A stretch of 56,491 nucleotides of DNA, taken from NCBI RefSeq assembly GCF_964213995.1, contig NC_135828.1:20708001-20764491 (forward strand), in the 5' to 3' direction. This document shows positions 1,801 through 48,760 of this stretch, piece after piece. The stretch comes from Mustelus asterias (lineage: Eukaryota). A program made the translations under genes and the position numbers. The first letter of the stretch is position 1. Each line of letters opens with the position of its first letter. The notes beneath the pieces are model-generated. The model made no database searches. It saw only the letters and a program-made list of their open reading frames with translations, and was not told where the DNA came from.

Positions 1801-2673
1801 CATGAGTACAGCTCTGCAAGCAGTAGCTGCCTTCAAAGCATTTGCTGAACAGACTGAAATGACAAACCAGCTTAAATTGTCCGCAACACTTTGTACTTAA
1901 GCCACTCAAGCTCTGATTAATAATGTCAGGATAACAATGAACCAACTATCAGTTGGCCTTTGCTCACATTATGAAAGGTAAAGGTGGTTTGCGGATTCTA
2001 ATAACTGGTAAATTTTAAAGTTAAATGAAATGGCTTCACAATGGCTTAGTTATTCGGGACTAGATATAAAACCCAAACAGGTTGGACTATCTATCCCCTT
2101 ACCAATCTGCATAGTGTCCTTAAATTGGTAAATTGAAGCCACAGTGGTACCACTTTCTAAATGCAGTTCAGAAATTACAGTGTAACAGCCGTTGCACTGA
2201 CCAGTGTTAGTTGCATCTGTAATTGTAAACACTAGGTGATCCACTGGATCCACTTGATCCACTGGAGCAGCTCATTGATCCACTGGAGCAAGCTGAGAGG
2301 GGTGATTGAAAAGCAGCAGTGCTGGTAAGAGATTAATTGGATTAATTGAATTGTTTATTTATTTAATTAGTCAGCTAGTGTGTGTATTTTTTTTGGCCTT
2401 TACTTTAACAGCAGTTTTTCAAGTTTAAAGTGAAAACTAGAAGTGGGCAGCAAAGGAGTCTGGGAAGGGTTTTTATTTTAACTTTAAAAGTCAGTTACCT
2501 GGGAGGTTCCCCCTCAGTAGTAGTTTTTTTTTCTCTCGGGCCCCTAGCCCTATAAATTGGTGCAGAGGAGATACCCGATCCTCTACACTGGTAGAGGATC
2601 CCACCCTTCCATCCTCCTCTAACCTAATTATAAGTGTGGGGAAGTTTTTTGTTTTCTTTTTTTCTTGCTGGTA

Positions 2674-3603
2674 ATGGCTTCAGGGATGGCAGTTCAGGCA
2701 GTATGCTGCATCTCCTGTGGGATGTATGTGGTGAGGAAATCCAGTAGTGTTTCAGGAGATTTTAGTTGTAAGAAGTGCATTAGATTGCAGCTTCTGGAGG
2801 AGCGTGTAAAGGAGCTGGAGGGGGAGGTAGAGGAACTCCGCATAATTCGGGAGGCGGAGGTGGAAGTTGATAGGAGTTATAGAGAAATAGTAACTCCTAG
2901 AAATGAGGCTTGGGTCAATGCCAGGAGGAGGGGTAAGAAGCAATCGGGAAGACAATCCCCTGGGGCGGTTCCCCTCCATAATAGGTTTTCGGTGCTGGAG
3001 GCTACAGTTGAGGAGGAATCAACTGAGCATAGAGAGCAGATCTCTGGGGGTGAGCCGAGTGAGAAAGCTCAGGTGGTTAGGGGCTGTAAAAGACTGGGCC
3101 TTGTGATTGGGGACTCCACAATTAAGGGGACAGATAGGAGGGTCGGAACTAAAGGTAGGGACTCAGGGTTGGTGTGTTGCCTACCAGGGGCTGGGGTCCG
3201 GGATGTGTCTGACAGGGTATTCAGGACTCTTAGGGGGGAGGGAGATAAACCACAAGTTATTGTACATGTGGGGACACACGACATAGGGAGGATAGGGGAA
3301 GGGGATATTAGGCAGGGATTTATGGAGTTGGGGTGGAAACTAAAGGCCAAGACTGACAGAGTGGTTATCTCTGGACTCTTGCCTGTACCACGGGATAGTT
3401 TAGAGAGGAATAGGGAGAGGGAAGGTTTGAATTCATGGCTGAGGGGATGGTGCAGGAGGGAGGGGTTCAGGTACTTAAGCAATTGGGGCTCGTACTGGGG
3501 AAGGTGTGACCTCTATGAGAAGGATGGTCTACACCTTAATCAGAAGGGGACCAATATCCTGGGGGGTAAATTTGCTAAGGCCATGCAGGGAGGTTTAAAC
3601 TGA
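2674..3603 (+). CDS. CR1 ORF1: Zn-finger/leucine-zipper plus SGNH esterase domain
   Basis: CxxC...CxxC followed by a heptad coiled coil; SGNH blocks IGDS, LPGA, HVGTHD and DGLH. ATG at 2674, with a second ATG at 2686 in strong Kozak context. Confidence 0.92.
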   Translation: MASGMAVQAVCCISCGMYVVRKSSSVSGDFSCKKCIRLQLLEERVKELEGEVEELRIIREAEVEVDRSYREIVTPRNEAWVNARRRGKKQSGRQSPGAVPLHNRFSVLEATVEEESTEHREQISGGEPSEKAQVVRGCKRLGLVIGDSTIKGTDRRVGTKGRDSGLVCCLPGAGVRDVSDRVFRTLRGEGDKPQVIVHVGTHDIGRIGEGDIRQGFMELGWKLKAKTDRVVISGLLPVPRDSLERNREREGLNSWLRGWCRREGFRYLSNWGSYWGRCDLYEKDGLHLNQKGTNILGGKFAKAMQGGLN

Positions 3604-3653
3604 TTCGGGGGGGGGGAGGGATCCTGAGTAGTGGGGCTGAAAGTGAGGGATGC

Positions 3654-6473
3654 ATGGATGGGGACTGCAATGCACGGCATTGCAGAGGTGGGGTGGAACA
3701 GGGTTTGAAATGTGTATACTTCAATGCCAGGAGTATTCGCAATAAAGTGGGTGAACTTGCAGCGTGGATCAGTACCTGGGACTTCGATGTTGTGGCTATT
3801 TCAGAGACATGGATAGAGCAGGGGCAGGAATGGATGCTGCAGGTCCCGGGGTTCAAATGTTTTAGTCGAAGTAGGGAAGGAGGTAGAAGAGGGGGAGGGG
3901 TAGCATTATTGGTCAAAGATTGTATCACAGTGTCAGAGAGGAGGTTTGATGAGGACTTATCTGTTGAGGTAGTATGGGCGGAGATTAGAAATAGGAGAGG
4001 AGAGGTCACCCTGTTGGGAGTCTTTTATAGACCTCCTAAAAGTTCTAGAGAGGTTGAGGAAAGGATTGCGGAGTCAATCCTGCTTAGGAGTGAAAGTAAT
4101 AGGGCAATTGTTATGGGGGATTTTAACTTGACTAATATTGACTGGAATTGTTATAGCTCTAGCTCGTTAGAGGGGTCAGTTTTTGTTCAAAGCGTGCAGG
4201 AAGGTTTTTTGACTCAGTATGTAGACAGGCCAACTAGAGGTGAGGCTATATTGGATCTGGTGCTGGGAAATGAGCCAGACCAGGTGCTAGACTTGGAAGT
4301 TGGTGTGCATTTTGGTGATAGTGACCACAATTCGGTTACGTTCACCTTAGTGATGGAAAGGGATAGGCATGAACCTCGGGCCAGTGGTTTTAGCTGGGGG
4401 AAGGGTAATTATGAGGCTATTAGGAGAGAATTAGGAAACATAGGTTGGACTAGGAGATTACAGGGACTGGGAACGTCCGACATGTGGAGTTTTTTCAAGG
4501 AGCAGCTACTGCGAGTCTGTGATAGGTATGTCCCTGTCAGGCAAGGAGGAATTGGTAGGGCTAGGGAACCGTGGTGCACCAAAAAAGTTTATTTGTTGGT
4601 TAAAAAGAAAAAGGAGGCTTATGTTCGGATGAGACGTGAGCACTCGGGTAGTGCACTAGAAAGCTTTAGATTGGCTAAGAGGGAGTTGAAGAGCGAGCTT
4701 AGAAGGGCTAAAAGGGGACATGAGAAGACTTTGGCGGATAGGGTTAAAGAGAATCCTAAGGCGTTCTATAGGTATGTCAAGAACAGAAGGTTGGTTAGGG
4801 CAAGTTTAGGGCCAGTTATAGATGGCAGAGGGAAGTTATGTGTGGAACCGGAGGAGATTGGTGAAGCATTGAACCAATATTTCTCTTCGGTGTTCACGCA
4901 AGGGGACATGAATATAGCTGAGGAGGACACTGGGTTGCAAGGGAGTAGAATAGACAGTATTACAGTTGATAAGGAGGATGTGCAGGATATTCTGGAGGGT
5001 CTGAAAATAGATAAATCCCCTGGTCCGGATGGGATTTATCCAAGGATTCTCTGGGAGGCAAGAGAAGTGATTGCAGCGCCTCTGGCTCTGATCTTCAGGT
5101 CGTCGTTGGCCTCTGGTATAGTACCAGAAGATTGGAGGTTAGCGAATGTTGTCCCATTGTTTAAGAAGGGGAACAGAGACTTCCCCGGGAATTATAGACC
5201 GGTGAGTCTCACTTCTGTTGTCGGCAAGATGTTGGAAAAAATTATAAGGGATAGGATTTATAGTTATTTGGAGAGTAATGAATTGATAGGTGATAGTCAG
5301 CATGGTTTTGTGGCAGGTAGGTCGTGCCTTACTAACCTTATTGAGTTTTTTGAGAAAGTGACCAAGGAGGTGGATGGGGGCAAGGCAGTGGACGTGGTAT
5401 ATATGGATTTTAGTAAGGCGTTTGATAAGGTTCACCATGGTAGGCTTCTGCAGAAAATGCAGATGTATGGGATTGGGGGTGATCTAGGAAATTGGATCAG
5501 GAATTGGCTAGCGGATAGGAAACAGAGGGTGGTGGTTGATAGTAAATATTCATCATGGAGTGCGGTTACAAGTGGTGTACCTCAGGGATCTGTTTTGGGG
5601 CCACTGCTGTTTGTAATATTTATTAATGATCTGGATGAGGGTATAGTTGGGTGGATTAGCAAATTTGCTGATGACACCAAAGTCGGTGGTGTGGTAGACA
5701 GTGAGGAAGGGTGTCGTAGTCTGCAGGAAGACTTAGACAGGTTGCAAAGTTGGGCCGAGAGGTGGCGGATGGAGTTTAATGCGGAGAAGTGTGAGGTAAT
5801 TCACTTTGGTAGGAATAACAGATGTGTTGAGTATAAGGCTAACGGGAGGACTTTGAATAGTGTGGAGGAGCAGAGGGATCTAGGTGTATGTGTGCATAGA
5901 TCCCTGAAAGTTGGGAATCAAGTAGATAAGGTTGTTAAGAAGGCATATGGTGTCTTGGCGTTTATTGGTAGGGGGATTGAATTTAGGAGTCGTAGCGTTA
6001 TGTTGCAACTGTACACAACTCTGGTGCGGCCGCACTTGGAGTACTGTGTGCAGTTCTGGTCCCCACATTACAGGAAGGATGTGGAGGCTTTGGAGAGGGT
6101 GCAGAGGAGGTTTACCAGGATGTTGCCTGGTATGGAGGGGAGATCCTATGAGGAGAGGCTGAGGGATTTGGGATTGTTTTCGCTGGAAAGGCGGCGGCTA
6201 AGAGGGGATCTTATTGAAACATATAAGATGATTAGAGGTTTAGATAGGGTGGATAGTGATAGCCTTTTTCCTCTGATGGAGAAATCCAGCACGAGGGGGC
6301 ATGGCTTTAAATTGAGGGGGGGTAGTTATAGAACCGATGTCAGGGGTAGGTTCTTTACCCAGAGGGTGGTGAGGGATTGGAATGCCCTGCCAGCATCAGT
6401 AGTAAATGCGCCTAGTTTGGGGGCGTTTAAGAGATCCGTAGATAGGTTCATGGACGAAAAGAAATTGGTTTAG
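3654..6473 (+). CDS. CR1 ORF2: AP endonuclease plus reverse transcriptase (939 aa, intact)
   Basis: APE motifs NARS, SETW, GDFN, SDH; RT motifs YRPVSLTS, DFSKAFD, QGSVLGP, FADD; CR1 C-terminus LERRRLRGD...FFTQRVV. The frame is open upstream to 3579. Confidence 0.97.
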   Translation: MDGDCNARHCRGGVEQGLKCVYFNARSIRNKVGELAAWISTWDFDVVAISETWIEQGQEWMLQVPGFKCFSRSREGGRRGGGVALLVKDCITVSERRFDEDLSVEVVWAEIRNRRGEVTLLGVFYRPPKSSREVEERIAESILLRSESNRAIVMGDFNLTNIDWNCYSSSSLEGSVFVQSVQEGFLTQYVDRPTRGEAILDLVLGNEPDQVLDLEVGVHFGDSDHNSVTFTLVMERDRHEPRASGFSWGKGNYEAIRRELGNIGWTRRLQGLGTSDMWSFFKEQLLRVCDRYVPVRQGGIGRAREPWCTKKVYLLVKKKKEAYVRMRREHSGSALESFRLAKRELKSELRRAKRGHEKTLADRVKENPKAFYRYVKNRRLVRASLGPVIDGRGKLCVEPEEIGEALNQYFSSVFTQGDMNIAEEDTGLQGSRIDSITVDKEDVQDILEGLKIDKSPGPDGIYPRILWEAREVIAAPLALIFRSSLASGIVPEDWRLANVVPLFKKGNRDFPGNYRPVSLTSVVGKMLEKIIRDRIYSYLESNELIGDSQHGFVAGRSCLTNLIEFFEKVTKEVDGGKAVDVVYMDFSKAFDKVHHGRLLQKMQMYGIGGDLGNWIRNWLADRKQRVVVDSKYSSWSAVTSGVPQGSVLGPLLFVIFINDLDEGIVGWISKFADDTKVGGVVDSEEGCRSLQEDLDRLQSWAERWRMEFNAEKCEVIHFGRNNRCVEYKANGRTLNSVEEQRDLGVCVHRSLKVGNQVDKVVKKAYGVLAFIGRGIEFRSRSVMLQLYTTLVRPHLEYCVQFWSPHYRKDVEALERVQRRFTRMLPGMEGRSYEERLRDLGLFSLERRRLRGDLIETYKMIRGLDRVDSDSLFPLMEKSSTRGHGFKLRGGSYRTDVRGRFFTQRVVRDWNALPASVVNAPSLGAFKRSVDRFMDEKKLV

Positions 6474-7400
6474 GTTGGAGGGTCACAGTTTTTTTTTTTT
6501 TTTAACTGGTCGGTGCAACATCGTGGGCCGAAGGGCCTGTTCTGCGCTGTAATGTTCTATGTTCTATGTTCTATGTAGCTTCCTGGAGATCTCTGGGGAT
6601 GAATTTATGTCTGATTACTGTCTGTTTTTTCGGTGGGGAGCAAGATTCAAATCGCCAAAAAAATCACCAACTCCTCACTACCTTTGCAAAAACGATTGCA
6701 GCTTTGGAGCAAAAGCAGATCTAATTAATATATTTAGGTTGGGAGATCTTATGGTGTATTTTGGACCCTAGTCCAAAATTGATCTCCAGGATTTCGAACG
6801 TAGTGTTTCAGAACAGTCAAAATTGATGAAAATTGATTTGCTCCTTTGACTTACATCTCCAGTCTTGTTGCTATTCTGAGTCTAACACAAGTGGCAATGC
6901 AACACTGGAGGGTGACGTCTGGATGTGCATTGTCATGTTGGCAAACAAGACTACAGCGTCCTTCAATCCTTTGACCTTGGCTCCACCCGGGTCTGATATA
7001 AGTGTCTCCAAACATTGCTATCAAAAAAATGATGGGAATGAATCTCCATCTTGTTACTTATGCAGTATATAAAATAGAGCTGTAGGTTTAAGCATTTTTT
7101 CAATGCATTGCAAAATGTCACAGAAGGTTCACCTTTTCTTCCTAAGTACAAGTCCACATATGTTGCTATCTCTTTTTCTGTTTCAGTAATTGAAAACATC
7201 TTTTCTGCACTAATGCACAGATGCTTTTTGTGATGTCGGAACATGTTTGACAAATTCAAAGCACATTTAATAAGTGGGAGCGATTCTACTGCAAATGTTA
7301 ACTTTACAAATTAACAATAGAGCATTGCAGCATTTAAAAAATACTTTATTTTAACTACACTTCACATTTTATAATTATTCCAATAATTAATTTGCAATAT

Positions 7401-7539: not shown

Positions 7540-8185
7540 TACATATGGATTAGGAGCACAAGTAGACCATTCGGCCCTCGAGCCTGCTCTGCCATTTGAT
7601 AAAATCATGTTGATCTGATTGTGGTCTCTTACTTTCCTGTTTACCCACTTGGCGCTTTGACTCCCTTCTTGATCAAGAATCTATCTAACCCAGCCTTAAA
7701 AATAGTCAATGATTCACCCTCCACATCTCTCTGGGGAAGATAATTGCACAGACCAATGACCGACTGTGAGAAAATGTTTCTCCTCATCCCTTTAAATGGG
7801 AGACACATAACTGTGTGTCCTGGTTCTGATCTCTCCAACAATGGGAAACATCCTCTCAACAATTCCCTTCAGGATCTTGTATATTTTAATAGGATCACCT
7901 CAAATTCTTCTAAACTCCATGGACACAGGCCCGACTTGCCCAACCTTTCCTCATAAGGTAACAACTTCATCCCAGGGATCAGTCATGTGAACCTTCTCTG
8001 AACTGCTTCTAATCAAGTAAAGAGACCAAAATTGTACATGGTACTCCAGGTGTAGTGTCACCAATGCCCTACACAATTGTAGCAATACAATTTTATATTC
8101 CATTCCCCTTGCAATAAGTGCCAACATTCCATTTGCCTTCCTAATCACTTGCTGTACCTGCATTGGAACTTTTAGTGATTCATTT
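7540..8185 (-). mobile_element. CR1 LINE 3' fragment, decayed
   Basis: Minus ORFs QVIRKANGMLALIARGMEYK...LEYHVQFWS and FSQSVIGLCNYLP are homologous to the ORF2 C-terminus. Confidence 0.85.
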
Positions 8186-12899: not shown

Positions 12900-13680
12900 A
12901 GGACCAATTATAACTTGGTTCACCGAGCTATCCAACAACATCTTGATTTTAAATTCTCATTCTCCTGTTTAAATTTCTCTATGCTCTTGCCCCTCCATAT
13001 CTCTATGAGAACCGTAGAAGGCTGAGGGGTTATCTTATAGAGATCGATAAAATAATGAGGGGCATATCAGCTAAATATCTTTTCCCAAAGGTAAGGGAGT
13101 CTAAAACTAGAGGGCATAGGTTTAAGGTCAGAAGGAAGAGATACAAAAGGGTCCAGAGGGGCAATTTTTTCACACAGAGAGTGGTGAGTGTCTGGAACAA
13201 GCTGCTAGAGGTAGTAGTAGAGGTGGGTACAATTTTGTCTTTTAAAAAGCGTTTAGACAGTTACATGGGTAAGATGGGTATAGAGGGATTTGGGCCAAGT
13301 GTGGGCAATTGGGACTAGCTTAGGGGCTTTTTAAAAAAGGGCAGCATGGACTAGTTGGGCTGAAGGGCCTGTTTCCATGCTGTAAACCTCTATGACTCTA
13401 TAACTCTGTGACCTCTTAACTCTGGACTCAATGTGCATTCACACTTCCTTTGCCCCATCGTTACTGATCATGCCTTCAGCAGTGTAGGCTCTAGGCTCAA
13501 GAATCCTCTCCTTAAACCTCTCCATCTCTCTTACACCTCTAAGCCATTCCTTAAAAGCTAACTCTTTGACCAAGCTAACTCCTTCTTTTGCCCACTGCCC
13601 ATTTTCATCTGATTACGCTTACATGATGCACCTCGGGGTGTCCGACTACATTAGGGAACTATATCATTGCAAGTTATTGT
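12900..13680 (+). mobile_element. L2-like 3' fragment with nested CR1 3' fragment (about 13005-13402)
   Basis: CR1 peptide RGHRFKVR...FFTQRVVSVWN with (ctctatga)n tail; flanks resemble an L2 3' end (ccttaaa...ctctttgaccaagct). Confidence 0.7.
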
Positions 13681-39041: not shown

Positions 39042-40570
39042 TGGCACGTTGGCACAGTGGTTAGCACTGCTGCCTCACAGCGCCAGGGACCCGAGTTCGG
39101 TTCCTAGCTTGGGTCACTGTCACTGCGGAGTTTGCACGTTCTCCCCATGTCTGCGTGGGTTTCCTCCAGGTGCTCCGGTTTCCTCCCACAGTCCGAAAGA
39201 CAAAGAACAAAGAACAGTACAGCACAGGAAACAGGCCCTTCGGCCCTCCAAGCCTGTACCGCTCATTGGTCCAACTCGACCATTCGTTTGTATCCCTCCA
39301 TTCCCAGACTGCTCATGTGACTGTCCAGGTAAGTCTTAAACGATGTCAGCGTGTCTGCTTCCACCACCCTACTTGGCAGCGCATTCCAGGTCCCCACCTG
39401 TGTAAAAAACGTTCCTCTGATATCTGAGTTATACCTCGTCCCTCTCACCTTGAGCCCGTGACCCCTCATGATTGTCACCTCCGACCTGGGAAAAATCTTC
39501 CCACTGTTCACCCTATCTATACCCGTCATAATTTTGTACACCTCTATTAGGTCTCCCCTCATTCTCCGTCTTTCCAGGGAGAACAAGCCCAGTTTACCCA
39601 ATCTCTCCTCATAGCTAAGACCCTCCATACCAGGCAACATCCTGGTAAACCTTCTCTGCACTCTCTCTAAAGCCTCCACGTCCTTCTGGTAGTGCGGCGA
39701 CCAGAACTGGACGCAGTACTCCAAATGTGGCCTAACCAGCATTCTATACAGCTGCAACATCAGGCTCCAGCTTTTATACTCTATACCCCGTCCTATAAAG
39801 GCAAGCATACCATATGCCTTCTTCACCACCTTCTCCACCTGTGCTGCCACCTTCAAGGATTTGTGGACTTGTACGCCCAGGTCCCTCTGTGTTTCTATAC
39901 TCTTGATGGCTCTGCCATTTATTGTATAACTCCCCCTTACATTAGTTCTTCCAAAATGCATCACTTCGCATTTATCTGGATTAAATTCCATCTGCCATTT
40001 CTCCGCCCAATTTTCCAGCCTATCTATATCCTGCTGTATTGTCCGACAATGTTCATCGCTATCCGCGAGTCCAGCCATCTTCGTGTCATCCGCAAACTTG
40101 CTGATAACACCAGTTACACCTTCTTCCAAATCATTTATATATATCACAAATAGCAGAGATCCCAGTACAGAGCCCTACGGAACACCACTGGTCACAGACC
40201 TCCAGCCGGAAAAAGACCCTTTGACTGTTACCCTCTGTCTCCTGTGGCCAAGCCAGTTTTCTACCCATCTAGCCACCTCTCCTTGTATCCCATGAGCCTT
40301 AACCTTCTTAACCAACCTGCCATGAGGGACTTTGTCAAATGCCTTACTGAAATCCACACAGACGACATCCACGGCCCTTCCTTCGTCAACTGTTTTTGTC
40401 ATTTCCTCAAAAAACTCCTCAAAAGACATGCTGGTTAGGTGTATTAACCATGCTAAACTCTCCCTCAGTGTACCCAAACAGGTGCCTGAGTGTCGCGACT
40501 AGGGGTTTTCACAGTAACTTCATTGCAGTGTTAATATAAGCCTACTTGTGACACTAATAAATAAACTTAA
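39042..40570 (+). mobile_element. V-SINE tail type B split by an antisense CR1 insertion
   Basis: SINE halves at 39042-39202 and 40422-40570. Confidence 0.85.
39203..40421 (-). mobile_element. 5'-truncated CR1 LINE (RT to 3' end) with 7-bp TSD
   Basis: ORFs with DFSKAFDKVPHGRL and ISKFADDTK; (TGTTCTT)n tail; AAAGACA duplicated at 39196-39202 and 40422-40428. Confidence 0.93.
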
Positions 40571-44127: not shown

Positions 44128-44440
44128 AGGGTGGAAGTGTCAATTACAAGGGGGCACAGGTTCAAGGTGAGAGGGGGGGAGTTTAAGGGAGATGTGCGGG
44201 GGAAGTTTTTCACGCAGAGAGTGGTGGGTGCCTGGAACGCGCTGCCAGAGGAGGTGGTGGAAGCAGGCACATTAGCAACATTTAAGAGGCATCTGGATGG
44301 GTACATGAATAGAGAGGGAATAGAGGGATACGGACCGAGTAAGGGCAGAAGGTTTATTTTAGTTTAGTTAGGGCATCATGATCGGGAAGGCCTTGGAGGG
44401 CCGAAGGGCCTGTTCCTGTGCCTTTCTTTGTTCTTTGTTC
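44128..44440 (+). mobile_element. CR1 3' fragment
   Basis: RGHRFKVRGGEFKGDVRGKFFTQRVV; (ttctttg)n tail. Confidence 0.88.
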
Positions 44441-45519: not shown

Positions 45520-47228
45520 GGGGTGATTCTCCGATCTTGCCGCGCCTGGCACAGACAGTGCGGTCCCGGAGAATGGTGTGCTAGCCTAAAAATACAAATA
45601 GGCGGCAAACAACTTGCAAGTTTCCCAGCCCCTTCCTAATGGTGCGAGCCGGATCGCACCCAGAAAGGACGCAAGCCCGATTAGCATATTTAATGTAGCA
45701 TTTAAATATACTTCGCCTGTTCAATCCCAGTGCACGGAATTCTACGGGCTTCAAGCGCGACACAATAAGGTTAAGAATCACTACTGGTGTCCACTAGTGG
45801 AGACTCGGCACCATGGTCACGCCAGGAGGTTTGGAGGCCAATGAAGCCCTCGAGTCGTCTCGGGCTTGGCCGGGCAGTGCCCATCGGGACCCAACTGTCA
45901 CGCTGGCAGTGCCTGGCAGTGAGCACCGGCGAGTTGGATCGGATCTCAGACAATGACGAGACAGAGAACAGGAATGAGATAGAGAATCTGGTGAACTGGT
46001 ACGACCACAATAATCTCTCCCTCAGTGTCAACAAAACGAAGGAGATTGTCATCAACTTCAGGAAGCTTAAAGGAGAACATGTTCCTGTCTACATTAACGG
46101 GGACGAAGTAGAAAGGGTCGAGAGCTTCAAGTTTTTGGGTGTCCAGATGATCAACAACCTGTCCTGGTCCCCCCATGCCGACACTATAGTTAAGAAAGCC
46201 CACCAACGCCTCTACGTTCTCAGAAGACTAAGGAAATTTGGCATGTCAGCTACAACTCTCACCAACGTTTACAGAAGCACCATAGAAAGCATTCTTTCTG
46301 GTTGTATCACAGCTTGGTATGGCTCCTGCTCTGCCCAAGACCGCAAGAAACTACAAAATGTCGTGAATGTAGCCCAATCCATCACACAAACCATCCTCCC
46401 ATCCATTGACTCTGTCTACACTTCCCGCTGCCTCGGAAAAGCAGCCAGCATAATCAAGGACCCCACGCACCCCGGACATTCTCTCTTCCACCTTCTTCCG
46501 TTGGGAAAAAGATACAAAAGTCTGAGGTCACGTACCAACCGACTCAAGAACAGCTTCTTCCCTGCTGCTGTCAGACTTTTGAATGGACCTAACTTGCACT
46601 AAGTTGATCTTTCTCTACACCCTAGCTATGACTGTAACACTACATTCTGCACCCTCTCCTTTCCTTCTCTATGTACGGTATGCTTTGTCTGTATAGCGCG
46701 CAAGAAACAATACTTTTCACTGTATGTTAATACACGTGGCAATAATAAATCAAATCAAAATCAAATCAAATTGTGCACCGGGGCAGTGGGGGCCATGACA
46801 GGGGCACTGTGCAAGGGAGGGGGGGTTCTGATAGGGGGGTATTGTGCAGGGTGGATTGTGCAGGTGGTCTCAATGGGAGGGCATGTTGGGGGTGTTGATA
46901 GGCAGATATGTTGGGGAACCCATTGGGAGAGCTCCAATGCTGCCTAGCCGTGTTGGGGAGGGTTCAGGGGTACATGCTGCTGATGGGGGTTGGGGTGGGC
47001 CCAATGTCTGCAGGGGGGATGGAGGGTGTCTTTCAGCGCACTCTGAGATCGGGGCACCCTTGCGAAACAGCGCCCGAGCTCTCAGAACCCAGGGTGTTTA
47101 GCACCAGCCTGAAACTCCCATCTCCTCCAAAACAATGAGTGATTGCGGTGCGGAGCACGCCGGAGAGACCGCCGCGGACCACTCCATTATTCTCACCATT
47201 ATTAGAAATTCTTTGGAAGAATTCCACC
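45520..47228. mobile_element. Non-autonomous GC-rich TIR element interrupted by a Rex1/Babar LINE
   Basis: Termini ggggtgattctcc ... gaagaattccaccc belong to the same TIR family as the MITEs. Confidence 0.55.
45935..46770 (+). mobile_element. 5'-truncated Rex1/Babar LINE (RT C-terminus plus 3'UTR)
   Basis: NNLSLSVNKTKEIVINFRK, FKFLGV, KKAHQRLYVLRRLRKF, IESILSGCITAWYG and RTNRLKNSFFPAAVRLLN; (TCAAA)n tail. Confidence 0.9.
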
Positions 47229-47794: not shown

Positions 47795-48760
47795 CAGACA
47801 TTGGGAGGTCAAGTCACTGACTTGAATATAATGTGGGAAAATATCAGGCCTCTACCCAGGCGGGAACACTGGAAAAGCAGAATATTATTCAAATGGGGAG
47901 AGACTGCAGAAAGCTGCGGTTCAGAGGGATCTGGACATCCTCGTGGATGAAATCATCATAGAATCATAGGGCAGAATTTTCTCATCCCTGTCTGTCACGG
48001 AATCGTAGTGGGTGGGACAGGACCATGCAAAGGTCCGGGGACCTTGGGCAGGATTTTCCGGTCTTGGGGATGAGCGCGGCCAGAAAATCGCGCCCGTCAA
48101 TGCAGAAGAAGGCCATTCGGCCCATCGAGCCTGCACCGACAACAATCCCACCCATGCACTGTCGGCCTTTATTGTAATGGGCGATGGAGTATAAAAGTAG
48201 GGAAGTCTTCCTGCAAATGTACAGTGCATTGGTGAGACCGCACCTCGAATATTGCTTACAGTTTCGGCTTCCTGGCTTGAGAAGTGAAGCACTTGTATTG
48301 CCGCCAGTCTGACAAGGCTGAAATCCTGGGATGAAGGGGTTGCCTAATGGGGAAAGGTTGAGCAGGTAGGGACTATACCCATTGGAGTTTAGAAGAATGA
48401 GTGGTAGCCTTATTGAAACAGACAAGATTCTGAGGGGGTGATTTGACAAGGTAAATGCTAAGATGATGTTTCCCCTCGAGGGGGATATCTAGACCTGGAA
48501 GTCACAGTTGAAGAGGAATACGAGGAGAATTTTGCTGTTAATCTTTGGAATTCTCTACTCCGGAGAGCTGTGGAGGGTCATTGAATATATTCCAGGCTGA
48601 GTTTTTTGACCTATAGGAGAGTCAAGGGTTATGGTGGGGGAGGGGGGGTGGGGGGCGGCAGGTAGGAAACCGAATCACATCAGCCATGACCGTATTGAAT
48701 AGCAGAGCAGGTTTGAGGGCCGAATGGCCTACTCCTTCTCCTGGTTCTTAAATGTTCTTG
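47795..48760 (+). mobile_element. Decayed CR1 fragment with nested SINE tail and MITE
   Basis: LYSALVRPHLEYCLQF-like peptide and CR1 tail gggccgaatggcctactcct. Confidence 0.75.

Follow-up and report, generated by a model that had tools for sequence, protein, structure and literature searches.

A conserved slippery heptamer at the ORF1/ORF2 junction points to probable programmed -1 frameshifting in shark-type and bird-type CR1 retrotransposons

Comparison of ORF1/ORF2 junctions among CR1-type LINEs suggests that ORF2 of these elements is probably produced by programmed -1 ribosomal frameshifting at the heptamer U_UUA_AAC, which would yield an ORF1-ORF2 fusion protein. Ribosomes are likely to slip at this site because the heptamer is shared by the lineages compared, and ORF2 lies one base back, often without a start codon. 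Translation of ORF2 in LINEs is usually attributed to reinitiation, and no prior report of frameshifting in CR1 ORF2 was found in the literature covered, that is, outside the early CR1 papers.

The element and the layout of its junction

The window analyzed here (the whole stretch of 56,491 nucleotides of Mustelus asterias contig NC_135828.1) contains a young full-length CR1 copy with the following features:

2271..6576 (ends approximate), + strand: young full-length CR1 LINE copy, delimited by sister-copy alignment
2271..2673, + strand: 5' UTR
2674..3603, + strand: ORF1, with an N-terminal CX2C-X16-CX2C motif, an SGNH/GDSL esterase and the C-terminus ...GGLN
3576..3578, + strand: TAA stop in the -1 frame, limiting the ORF1/ORF2 overlap to 7 codons ahead of the ORF1 stop
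3579..6473, + strand: ORF2 frame, with an APE-type endonuclease (about 3717-4328) and a reverse transcriptase (about 5166-5831)
3594..3600, + strand: slippery heptamer T_TTA_AAC, putative -1 shift site, kept in 14/14 lineages
3600..3707, + strand: -1-frame linker from the slip site to the endonuclease
3601..3603, + strand: ORF1 stop TGA (TAA or TAG in other lineages)
3607..3616, + strand: G10 run, specific to the window-copy family and slippage-prone
3611..3622, + strand: conserved G motif at +11 to +22 relative to the heptamer, made of two G patches followed by A; candidate stimulator
3650..3656, + strand: out-of-frame ATG at 3650 and in-frame ATG at 3654
6474..6576, + strand: 3' UTR with a terminal short GTTCTAT-type repeat

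The element is assigned to CR1 on the basis of its ORF2 domains, ORF1 homology and 3' end. ORF2 matches PF03372, PF14529 and PF00078 (endonuclease and reverse transcriptase), and ORF1 is homologous to bird CR1 ORF1s, with the cysteine motif, recognized by reading of the translation, and the esterase, for which the GDSL domain match (E 1e-7, 32.8 bits) falls marginally below the cut-off of 32.9. Instead of poly(A), the 3' end has a short tandem repeat, and 5'-truncated copies are numerous, a combination known for CR1 and described in the available part of PMC2734521. The alignments of sister copies start at 2271-2275 and end at about 6576, full copies show 3-9 differences from the window copy per up to 2308 sites, and in one sublineage another 5' UTR is attached at about 2632. 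CR1 is abundant and young in the M. asterias genome, where the window-copy family numbers roughly 2400 copies.

The junction reads as the preliminary description had it: the heptamer stands in X_XXY_YYZ phase right before the ORF1 TGA, the ORF2 frame is open from 3579 to 6473 after the TAA, the G10 run follows a 6-nt spacer, and the predicted fusion, put there at about 1266 aa, is computed as 309+957=1266 aa. The ATGs at 3650 and 3654 had been overlooked. The latter, located 18 codons ahead of the endonuclease, is the one AUG in the window-copy family from which ORF2 could start before that domain, and the former has a G at -3. TTTAAAC by itself is not rare, with 16 occurrences on the two strands of the window; the signal lies in the conservation of the heptamer together with its phase.

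Conservation of the heptamer and of the -1 register

At loci chosen independently of the DNA pattern, TTTAAAC is present at 142 of 145 junctions. Both the TTA and the AAC codon are kept in 14/14 lineages with 26-76% pairwise protein identity (six of them bird-type), which are related and do not represent 14 independent events, whereas none of 26 other conserved columns used as a control is restricted to a single codon; in the background codon usage, TTA accounts for 13% of Leu and AAC for 37% of Asn. The codon preceding the heptamer encodes a variable amino acid (G, S, A, C, R, T, N or H) and ends in T in 144/145 copies. All three stop codons (TAA, TAG and TGA) are found as the ORF1 stop, and in two lineages (L088 and L210) in which this stop is shifted one codon later, the heptamer and the -1 register are retained. 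The heptamer sits in the reading phase of ORF1, and its conservation exceeds protein constraint. An alignment of junctions of the kind proposed in the preliminary description, covering shark-type and bird-type lineages, shows TTTAAAC kept in both, and the LN terminus suggested there for amniote ORF1 proteins is found in 74 of the 86 bird-type proteins that reach that end, as well as in 26 of 28 such shark/ray-type proteins.

Outside the window-copy family, ORF2 is in the -1 frame in 87 of 100 measurable copies, 78 of which have stop-free linkers; in 68 of these 78 open linkers, the first Met is located only inside the endonuclease, and none of the 87 in-register copies has an ATG inside the ORF1/ORF2 overlap. 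Nine linker lengths, from 95 to 257 nt, occur among these copies, and the -1 register is held in all of them; two of 12 measurable clusters (L215 and L200) are off register. Within the window-copy family, 79 of 100 young copies are in the -1 register. Free variation of the register among young copies, named beforehand as an outcome contrary to frameshifting, is not seen, although the other 21 are off register through slippage in the G-run.

The length of the G10 run is real and not an assembly error, a concern raised with the original observation, because exact junction counts across the genome give 1961 G10 against 325 G11; G10 is also found in four of six public-run contigs that cross the junction, with G9 and G11 in one each. 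The expansion of the run is one-sided (21 longer and 1 shorter per 100 young copies), and G11 looks like the result of recurrent slippage. A dominance of G11, initially suggested by 30 ranked loci, was rejected given that the ranking is biased and that position-ordered and whole-genome counts favor G10.

The G motif as a candidate stimulator

The stimulator is the least certain part of the frameshift model. Downstream of the heptamer, G is present at +11 to +14 and at +18/+19 in 13/13 lineages, and third codon positions are conserved as well. The preliminary description had invoked an RNA G-quadruplex; the canonical pattern (four G3 tracts, loops up to 7) is found in 0/12 lineages and the pattern with loops up to 12 in a single one, the window-copy family, whereas a two-tier G pattern is present in 8/12 lineages and a quadruplex appears in the predicted fold in 4/12. 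Because the G10 run is family-specific and the conserved core consists of two short G patches, a quadruplex stimulator is not supported as a general feature of the junction. The comparison does lend good support to the frameshift and fusion reading itself (heptamer, register, Met-less linkers and LN ends of bird proteins). The available part of a 2016 review lists no known case of natural quadruplex-stimulated frameshifting (PMC5009743).

A search for conserved downstream hairpins, with pseudoknots set aside, found none above shuffled sequences (z from -1.5 to +1.1 in 12 lineages and -0.43 in a further run). In the window-copy family, a segment of the 5' UTR (about 2595-2609) shows complementarity to the junction (-31.9 kcal/mol); pairing of the 5' UTR with the G motif is not a requirement because the sublineage with the different 5' UTR lacks that segment and still propagates. 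Another candidate partner of the G motif, a C-rich stretch that encodes Pro-Leu and lies about 635 nt upstream, turns up repeatedly, with weak pairing at bird-type loci and no clear covariation.

It is conceivable, as a tentative proposal, that the G motif, separated from the heptamer by 10 nt, serves as a linear element to which a protein binds, and rather doubtful that it acts as a weak two-tier quadruplex; a protein-bound linear motif fits about as well as a quadruplex, itself a weak idea. There is an analogy, and no more, in the -2/-1 frameshifting of PRRSV nsp2, which depends on nsp1beta and PCBP and uses a linear, structure-independent two-patch motif with a wild-type spacer of 10 nt (PMC4937337, available part); the CR1 motif likewise has two patches after a 10-nt spacer, but these are G-rich, not C-rich.

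Mechanism, alternatives and implications

Under the frameshift model, U_UUA_AAC comprises the last two codons of ORF1, where most ribosomes would terminate and release ORF1p, while in a minority tRNA-Leu and tRNA-Asn would slip by one base, and these ribosomes would continue through ...GLN-LIRG... into the fusion. Slow termination at the adjacent stop would perhaps aid slippage, and the off-register G11 copies would be dead-end slippage products. The heptamer is among the most shift-prone known and is the same as in the coronavirus IBV, where, as in retroviral gag-pol, the phase is the same and the polymerase ORF is in the -1 frame (PMC5009743, available part). Unlike these viral sites, the putative CR1 site belongs to a vertebrate non-LTR element, has the stop directly 3' of the heptamer and has no detected downstream hairpin. 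Among non-LTR elements, TRE5-A and TRE3-A of Dictyostelium have an ORF2 that requires a -1 frameshift, according to a figure legend in a review (PMC5911963, available part), but these are amoebal, tRNA-gene-targeting elements. Chicken and other amniote CR1s also have two ORFs, with homologous bird ORF1 proteins ending in LN; the available parts of PMC2734521, PMC11835228 and PMC4255032 do not give the mechanism of ORF2 translation. Natural in-frame ORF1-ORF2 fusions were sought among longer proteins, with two matches, neither listed with endonuclease or reverse transcriptase domains, which is weak evidence, and no relatives were found among genome contigs or viral contigs.

Termination followed by reinitiation, with ORF2 restarted near the stop at an AUG or another codon to give a separate ORF2p, is the mode of L1 and SART1, whose bicistronic RNAs make ORF2 dependent on ORF1 translation (PMC2881922, available part), and any sense codon can stand in for the AUG of L1 ORF2, according to PMC1965478 (available part), which cites the L1 work. 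In CR1, the heptamer and G motif would then be coupling signals. Some shark CR1 lineages do have a UAAUG stop-start overlap (the SART1-type form is present in 1/13 lineage representatives, L224, and absent in the window-copy family), the window-copy family has ATG 3654, and Met is present in the linker of 4/4 bird-type loci with a measurable linker. However, reinitiation predicts neither a perfect in-phase X_XXY_YYZ heptamer nor its retention at the moved stops, no AUG or near-cognate codon is conserved at the junction across the lineages compared, and in the window-copy family ATG 3650 comes before ATG 3654; CR1 departs from L1 and SART1 in the overlap of its ORFs in the -1 frame, in the invariance of its slippery heptamer and in mostly lacking an AUG. 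We regard reinitiation as quite unlikely. Ancestral frameshifting supplemented by reinitiation in lineages with a nearby AUG, including the window-copy family, is an unlikely reading too, and its probability is not exclusive of that of the frameshift model, with which it overlaps. Were both routes used, the constraint on the G-run length would be looser, and the window-copy family does combine a linker ATG with a long, slippage-prone run. Of the off-register copies, 16 of 21 have an intact ORF2 downstream, against 32 of 38 among the G10 copies. Nevertheless, intact ORF2 in very young copies carries little information on function, G10 outnumbers G11 six to one despite the one-sided expansion, and in a low-power test for an active off-register sublineage, G10 copies occur in all six shared-SNP groups of at least 7 copies and make up at least half of them.

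Two further explanations appear highly improbable. If the esterase simply needs the terminal LN and the -1 overlap reflects geometry inherited from an ancestor or chance, the invariance of L308 and N309 in 22 proteins is accounted for, but the invariant synonymous positions, unlike anything in the control columns, and the fixed third base of the preceding codon with its varying amino acid are not; the codon control largely refutes this explanation. Joining of the frames at the RNA level, by splicing or by polymerase slippage in the G-run, is similarly far-fetched: the G-run does slip, but this cannot remove the ORF1 stop because the stop is upstream of the run, and as to splicing, neither GT nor AG is conserved at the junction, where the preceding codon and the stop are both variable, and the public-run contigs spanning it show no deletion joint. 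Both routes were accordingly rejected.

Returning to programmed frameshifting, the broader proposal that CR1s from sharks to birds encode a gag-pol-like polyprotein, with a non-pseudoknot G motif, bound by a host protein or ORF1p or folded into a quadruplex, as the stimulator, is possible but tentative. In chicken, CR1 accounts for 11.8% of the genome (PMC11835228, available part). If frameshifting is the mechanism, CR1 would produce a fused esterase-endonuclease-reverse transcriptase protein at a fixed ORF1:ORF2 ratio, intact copies would have to be annotated and assayed differently, and the elements would possibly come within reach of host factors that influence frameshifting; a short reporter insert suffices for a direct test. 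Should the G-rich motif be the stimulator, it would add a new class to the natural stimulators of frameshifting, one conserved throughout jawed vertebrates.

The CR1 element and its ORF1/ORF2 junction

The window, which comes from a genome of 3.68 Gb, contains a young full-length CR1 element; the nearest named relatives of its ORF1 are from sharks, rays and skates. Upon re-reading of the sequence, the heptamer, both stop codons and the G-run were found where the preliminary description had placed them, and the ORF1-ORF2 fusion was computed to be 1266 aa long, as claimed there.

Features identified in the window
~2271-6576, +: full-length CR1-type LINE
2674-3603: ORF1 with GDSL esterase
3579-6473: ORF2 frame with endonuclease and reverse transcriptase (RT)
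3576-3578: TAA stop in the -1 frame
3594-3600: heptamer TTTAAAC
3601-3603: TGA stop of ORF1
3607-3616: run of ten G (G10)
39314-40417 (-), 44131-44322, 48181-48477, 13013-13267, 7665-8178 (-), 45775-46602: older, 5'-truncated LINE ORF2 fragments

No second ORF1 was found in the window. The sense strand of the element shows strong G-over-C skew (0.36-0.45 within 2001-6000, versus about 0 elsewhere), and short GATCCACTGG repeats are present at ~2237-2290. In one sublineage of the family (copies L005, L014, L018, L253 and L284), recognizable by SNPs at positions 3128 and 4384, another 5' UTR that contains repeats is joined on at ~2632; this swap happened inside a family just ~0.3% diverged. In some copies (L007, L013, L026), the first ~245 bases of the 5' UTR (2271-2516) have at least two matches, which suggests promoter monomers arranged in tandem.

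Conservation of the heptamer and the ORF2 register

Given that TTTAAAC is present 16 times over both strands of the window, a single instance means little, so conservation needed testing. Loci were gathered by protein search of the same genome with five diverged ORF1 queries, along with metagenome contigs, and ORF1 ends were placed by a profile omitting the last 11 columns; because the queries include the terminal LN, the collection could favour these amino acids but not particular codons for them. With the 30 loci that had been selected by DNA pattern set aside, the collection comprises 157 junctions. In 12 of these, one of which (L234) reads TTTAAAT, contig ends or indels put the stop at another distance than expected, and they were dropped. 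TTTAAAC is present in 142 of the 145 retained junctions, which form 15 clusters at 85% identity (14 once L200 is merged). In this junction comparison, of the kind proposed by the preliminary description, the heptamer is kept in all 14 lineages, six of them bird-type, even at 26-76% pairwise protein identity between representatives: all 14 use TTA and AAC, compared with single-codon use in none of 26 other conserved columns of the same representatives. The preceding codon encodes eight residues across copies, yet its third base is T in 144 of 145. TAA, TAG and TGA all occur as the ORF1 stop among these junctions, and in L088 and L210 the stop is shifted by one codon with heptamer and register unchanged.

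The statement that amniote ORF1s end in LN proved correct for bird-type homologues (74 of the 86 that reach the end; 26 of 28 among shark/ray-type proteins), and one locus, L067, is 98% identical to a penguin-named protein. Five database gene models (one ray, four birds) contain F-K-L, as the site reads in the -1 frame, and continue into the linker that precedes the endonuclease. Two ORF1 homologues (P0011, P0028) are misleadingly named in the database, one as a bacterial SGNH hydrolase, probably through contamination, and the other as a ribosomal protein isoform.

The predicted -1 register of ORF2 was recovered beyond the window's family in 87 of 100 measurable copies (7 are in +1 and 6 in 0; 13 others gave no measurable register), and 10 of 12 measurable clusters are in -1, with the window's family entered by its genome-wide numbers. 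The register is kept at linker lengths of 95, 107, 116, 122, 128, 137, 140, 167 and 257 nt. A recurring linker deletion starting at 3664 (3664-3693; L020, L257, L274), which in L020 spans 30 nt and is in-frame, takes out a small hairpin region and leaves the ORF2 frame intact. The 257-nt linker belongs to a young family (e.g., L089, L090, L092) in which a truncated endonuclease start runs into the end of another lineage's linker; this cluster looks chimeric, yet is in the -1 register.

The G-run and the downstream G motif

The junction pattern of the window's family has 2425 genome matches. Among the first 100 by position, the G-run is of the window's length in 78, longer by one in 15, by two in 3, by three in 1 and by four in 2, and shorter by one in 1; genome-wide, there are 1961 exact G10 junctions and 325 with G11. 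Free variation of the register among young copies, which would speak against the signal, is not seen, although 21 of these 100 are off; 79 keep -1. Public-run contigs spanning the site have G10 (X1, X12, X2, X5), G9 (X8) or G11 (X9), and those of X7 end within the run. Full-length examination of 60 of the 100 copies (all 22 non-G10 and 38 of 78 G10, a two-fold oversampling of non-G10) yielded six shared-SNP groups of 7-13 copies, every one mixing G10 with other lengths, with G10 making up at least half of each despite this oversampling. The mix fits recurrent slippage from G10 sources, in a test whose power is low because sublineages are few and ~20% of copying events slip. Just one off-register pair, L249/L250, is linked by SNPs and has an identical truncation point; the two lie 7 kb apart and are probably a local duplication.

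Counting from the heptamer, G is invariant over all 13 lineages at +11 to +14 and +18/+19, and 12 of the 13 have it at +15 and +20. As +11, +14 and +20 fall on third codon positions of ORF2, at which the usual share of G is 35%, the constraint appears to act on RNA. The site is the locally most G-rich stretch (G4Hunter 1.3-1.9, values that no more than 4% of background windows reach). As to the quadruplex stimulator suggested in the preliminary description, the canonical quadruplex pattern is found in none of 12 lineages, and a two-tier pattern in 8. No downstream hairpin better than shuffles was found, and long-range pairing of the motif was rejected or lacked clear support. With two patches after a 10-nt spacer, the motif may be likened to the PRRSV stimulator, which, as outlined in part of PMC4937337, is C-rich and protein-bound.

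Frameshifting or reinitiation

Early turtle and chicken CR1 papers reportedly place the two ORFs in overlap or close to each other, and a frameshift may already have been proposed in them. These apart, the consulted portions of the literature on CR1/LINE frameshifting (including PMC2734521, PMC11835228 and PMC4255032) contain no report of this signal. Excerpts of PMC5009743 rank U_UUA_AAC among the most shift-prone sites, state that no natural quadruplex stimulation of frameshifting was known in 2016 and attribute mammalian LINE ORF2 to unusual initiation; a figure legend of PMC5911963 names TRE5-A and TRE3-A as dependent on a -1 frameshift, to which the consulted portions of PMC5006619 add nothing.

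The main rival explanation is AUG-independent reinitiation, which sections of PMC2881922 and PMC1965478 describe for L1 and SART1. It accounts for the missing Met: 78 of the 87 -1 copies outside the window's family are stop-free between junction and endonuclease, the first Met lies more than 3 codons inside the endonuclease in 68 of these 78, and none of the 87 has an ATG in the ORF1/ORF2 overlap. It leaves the perfect heptamer unexplained. Counting against frameshifting are an in-frame ATG at 3654 in the window's family, a Met at varying places inside the linker of all four bird-type loci with a measurable linker, and UAAUG in some shark lineages. On balance, -1 slippage on U_UUA_AAC appears the most likely scenario: a minority of ribosomes would slip and make the ORF1-ORF2 fusion, and the G motif may contribute, as judged from sequence. 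The junction anatomy and its conservation are directly observed. The signal in CR1 LINEs is real, of recoding type and deeply conserved.
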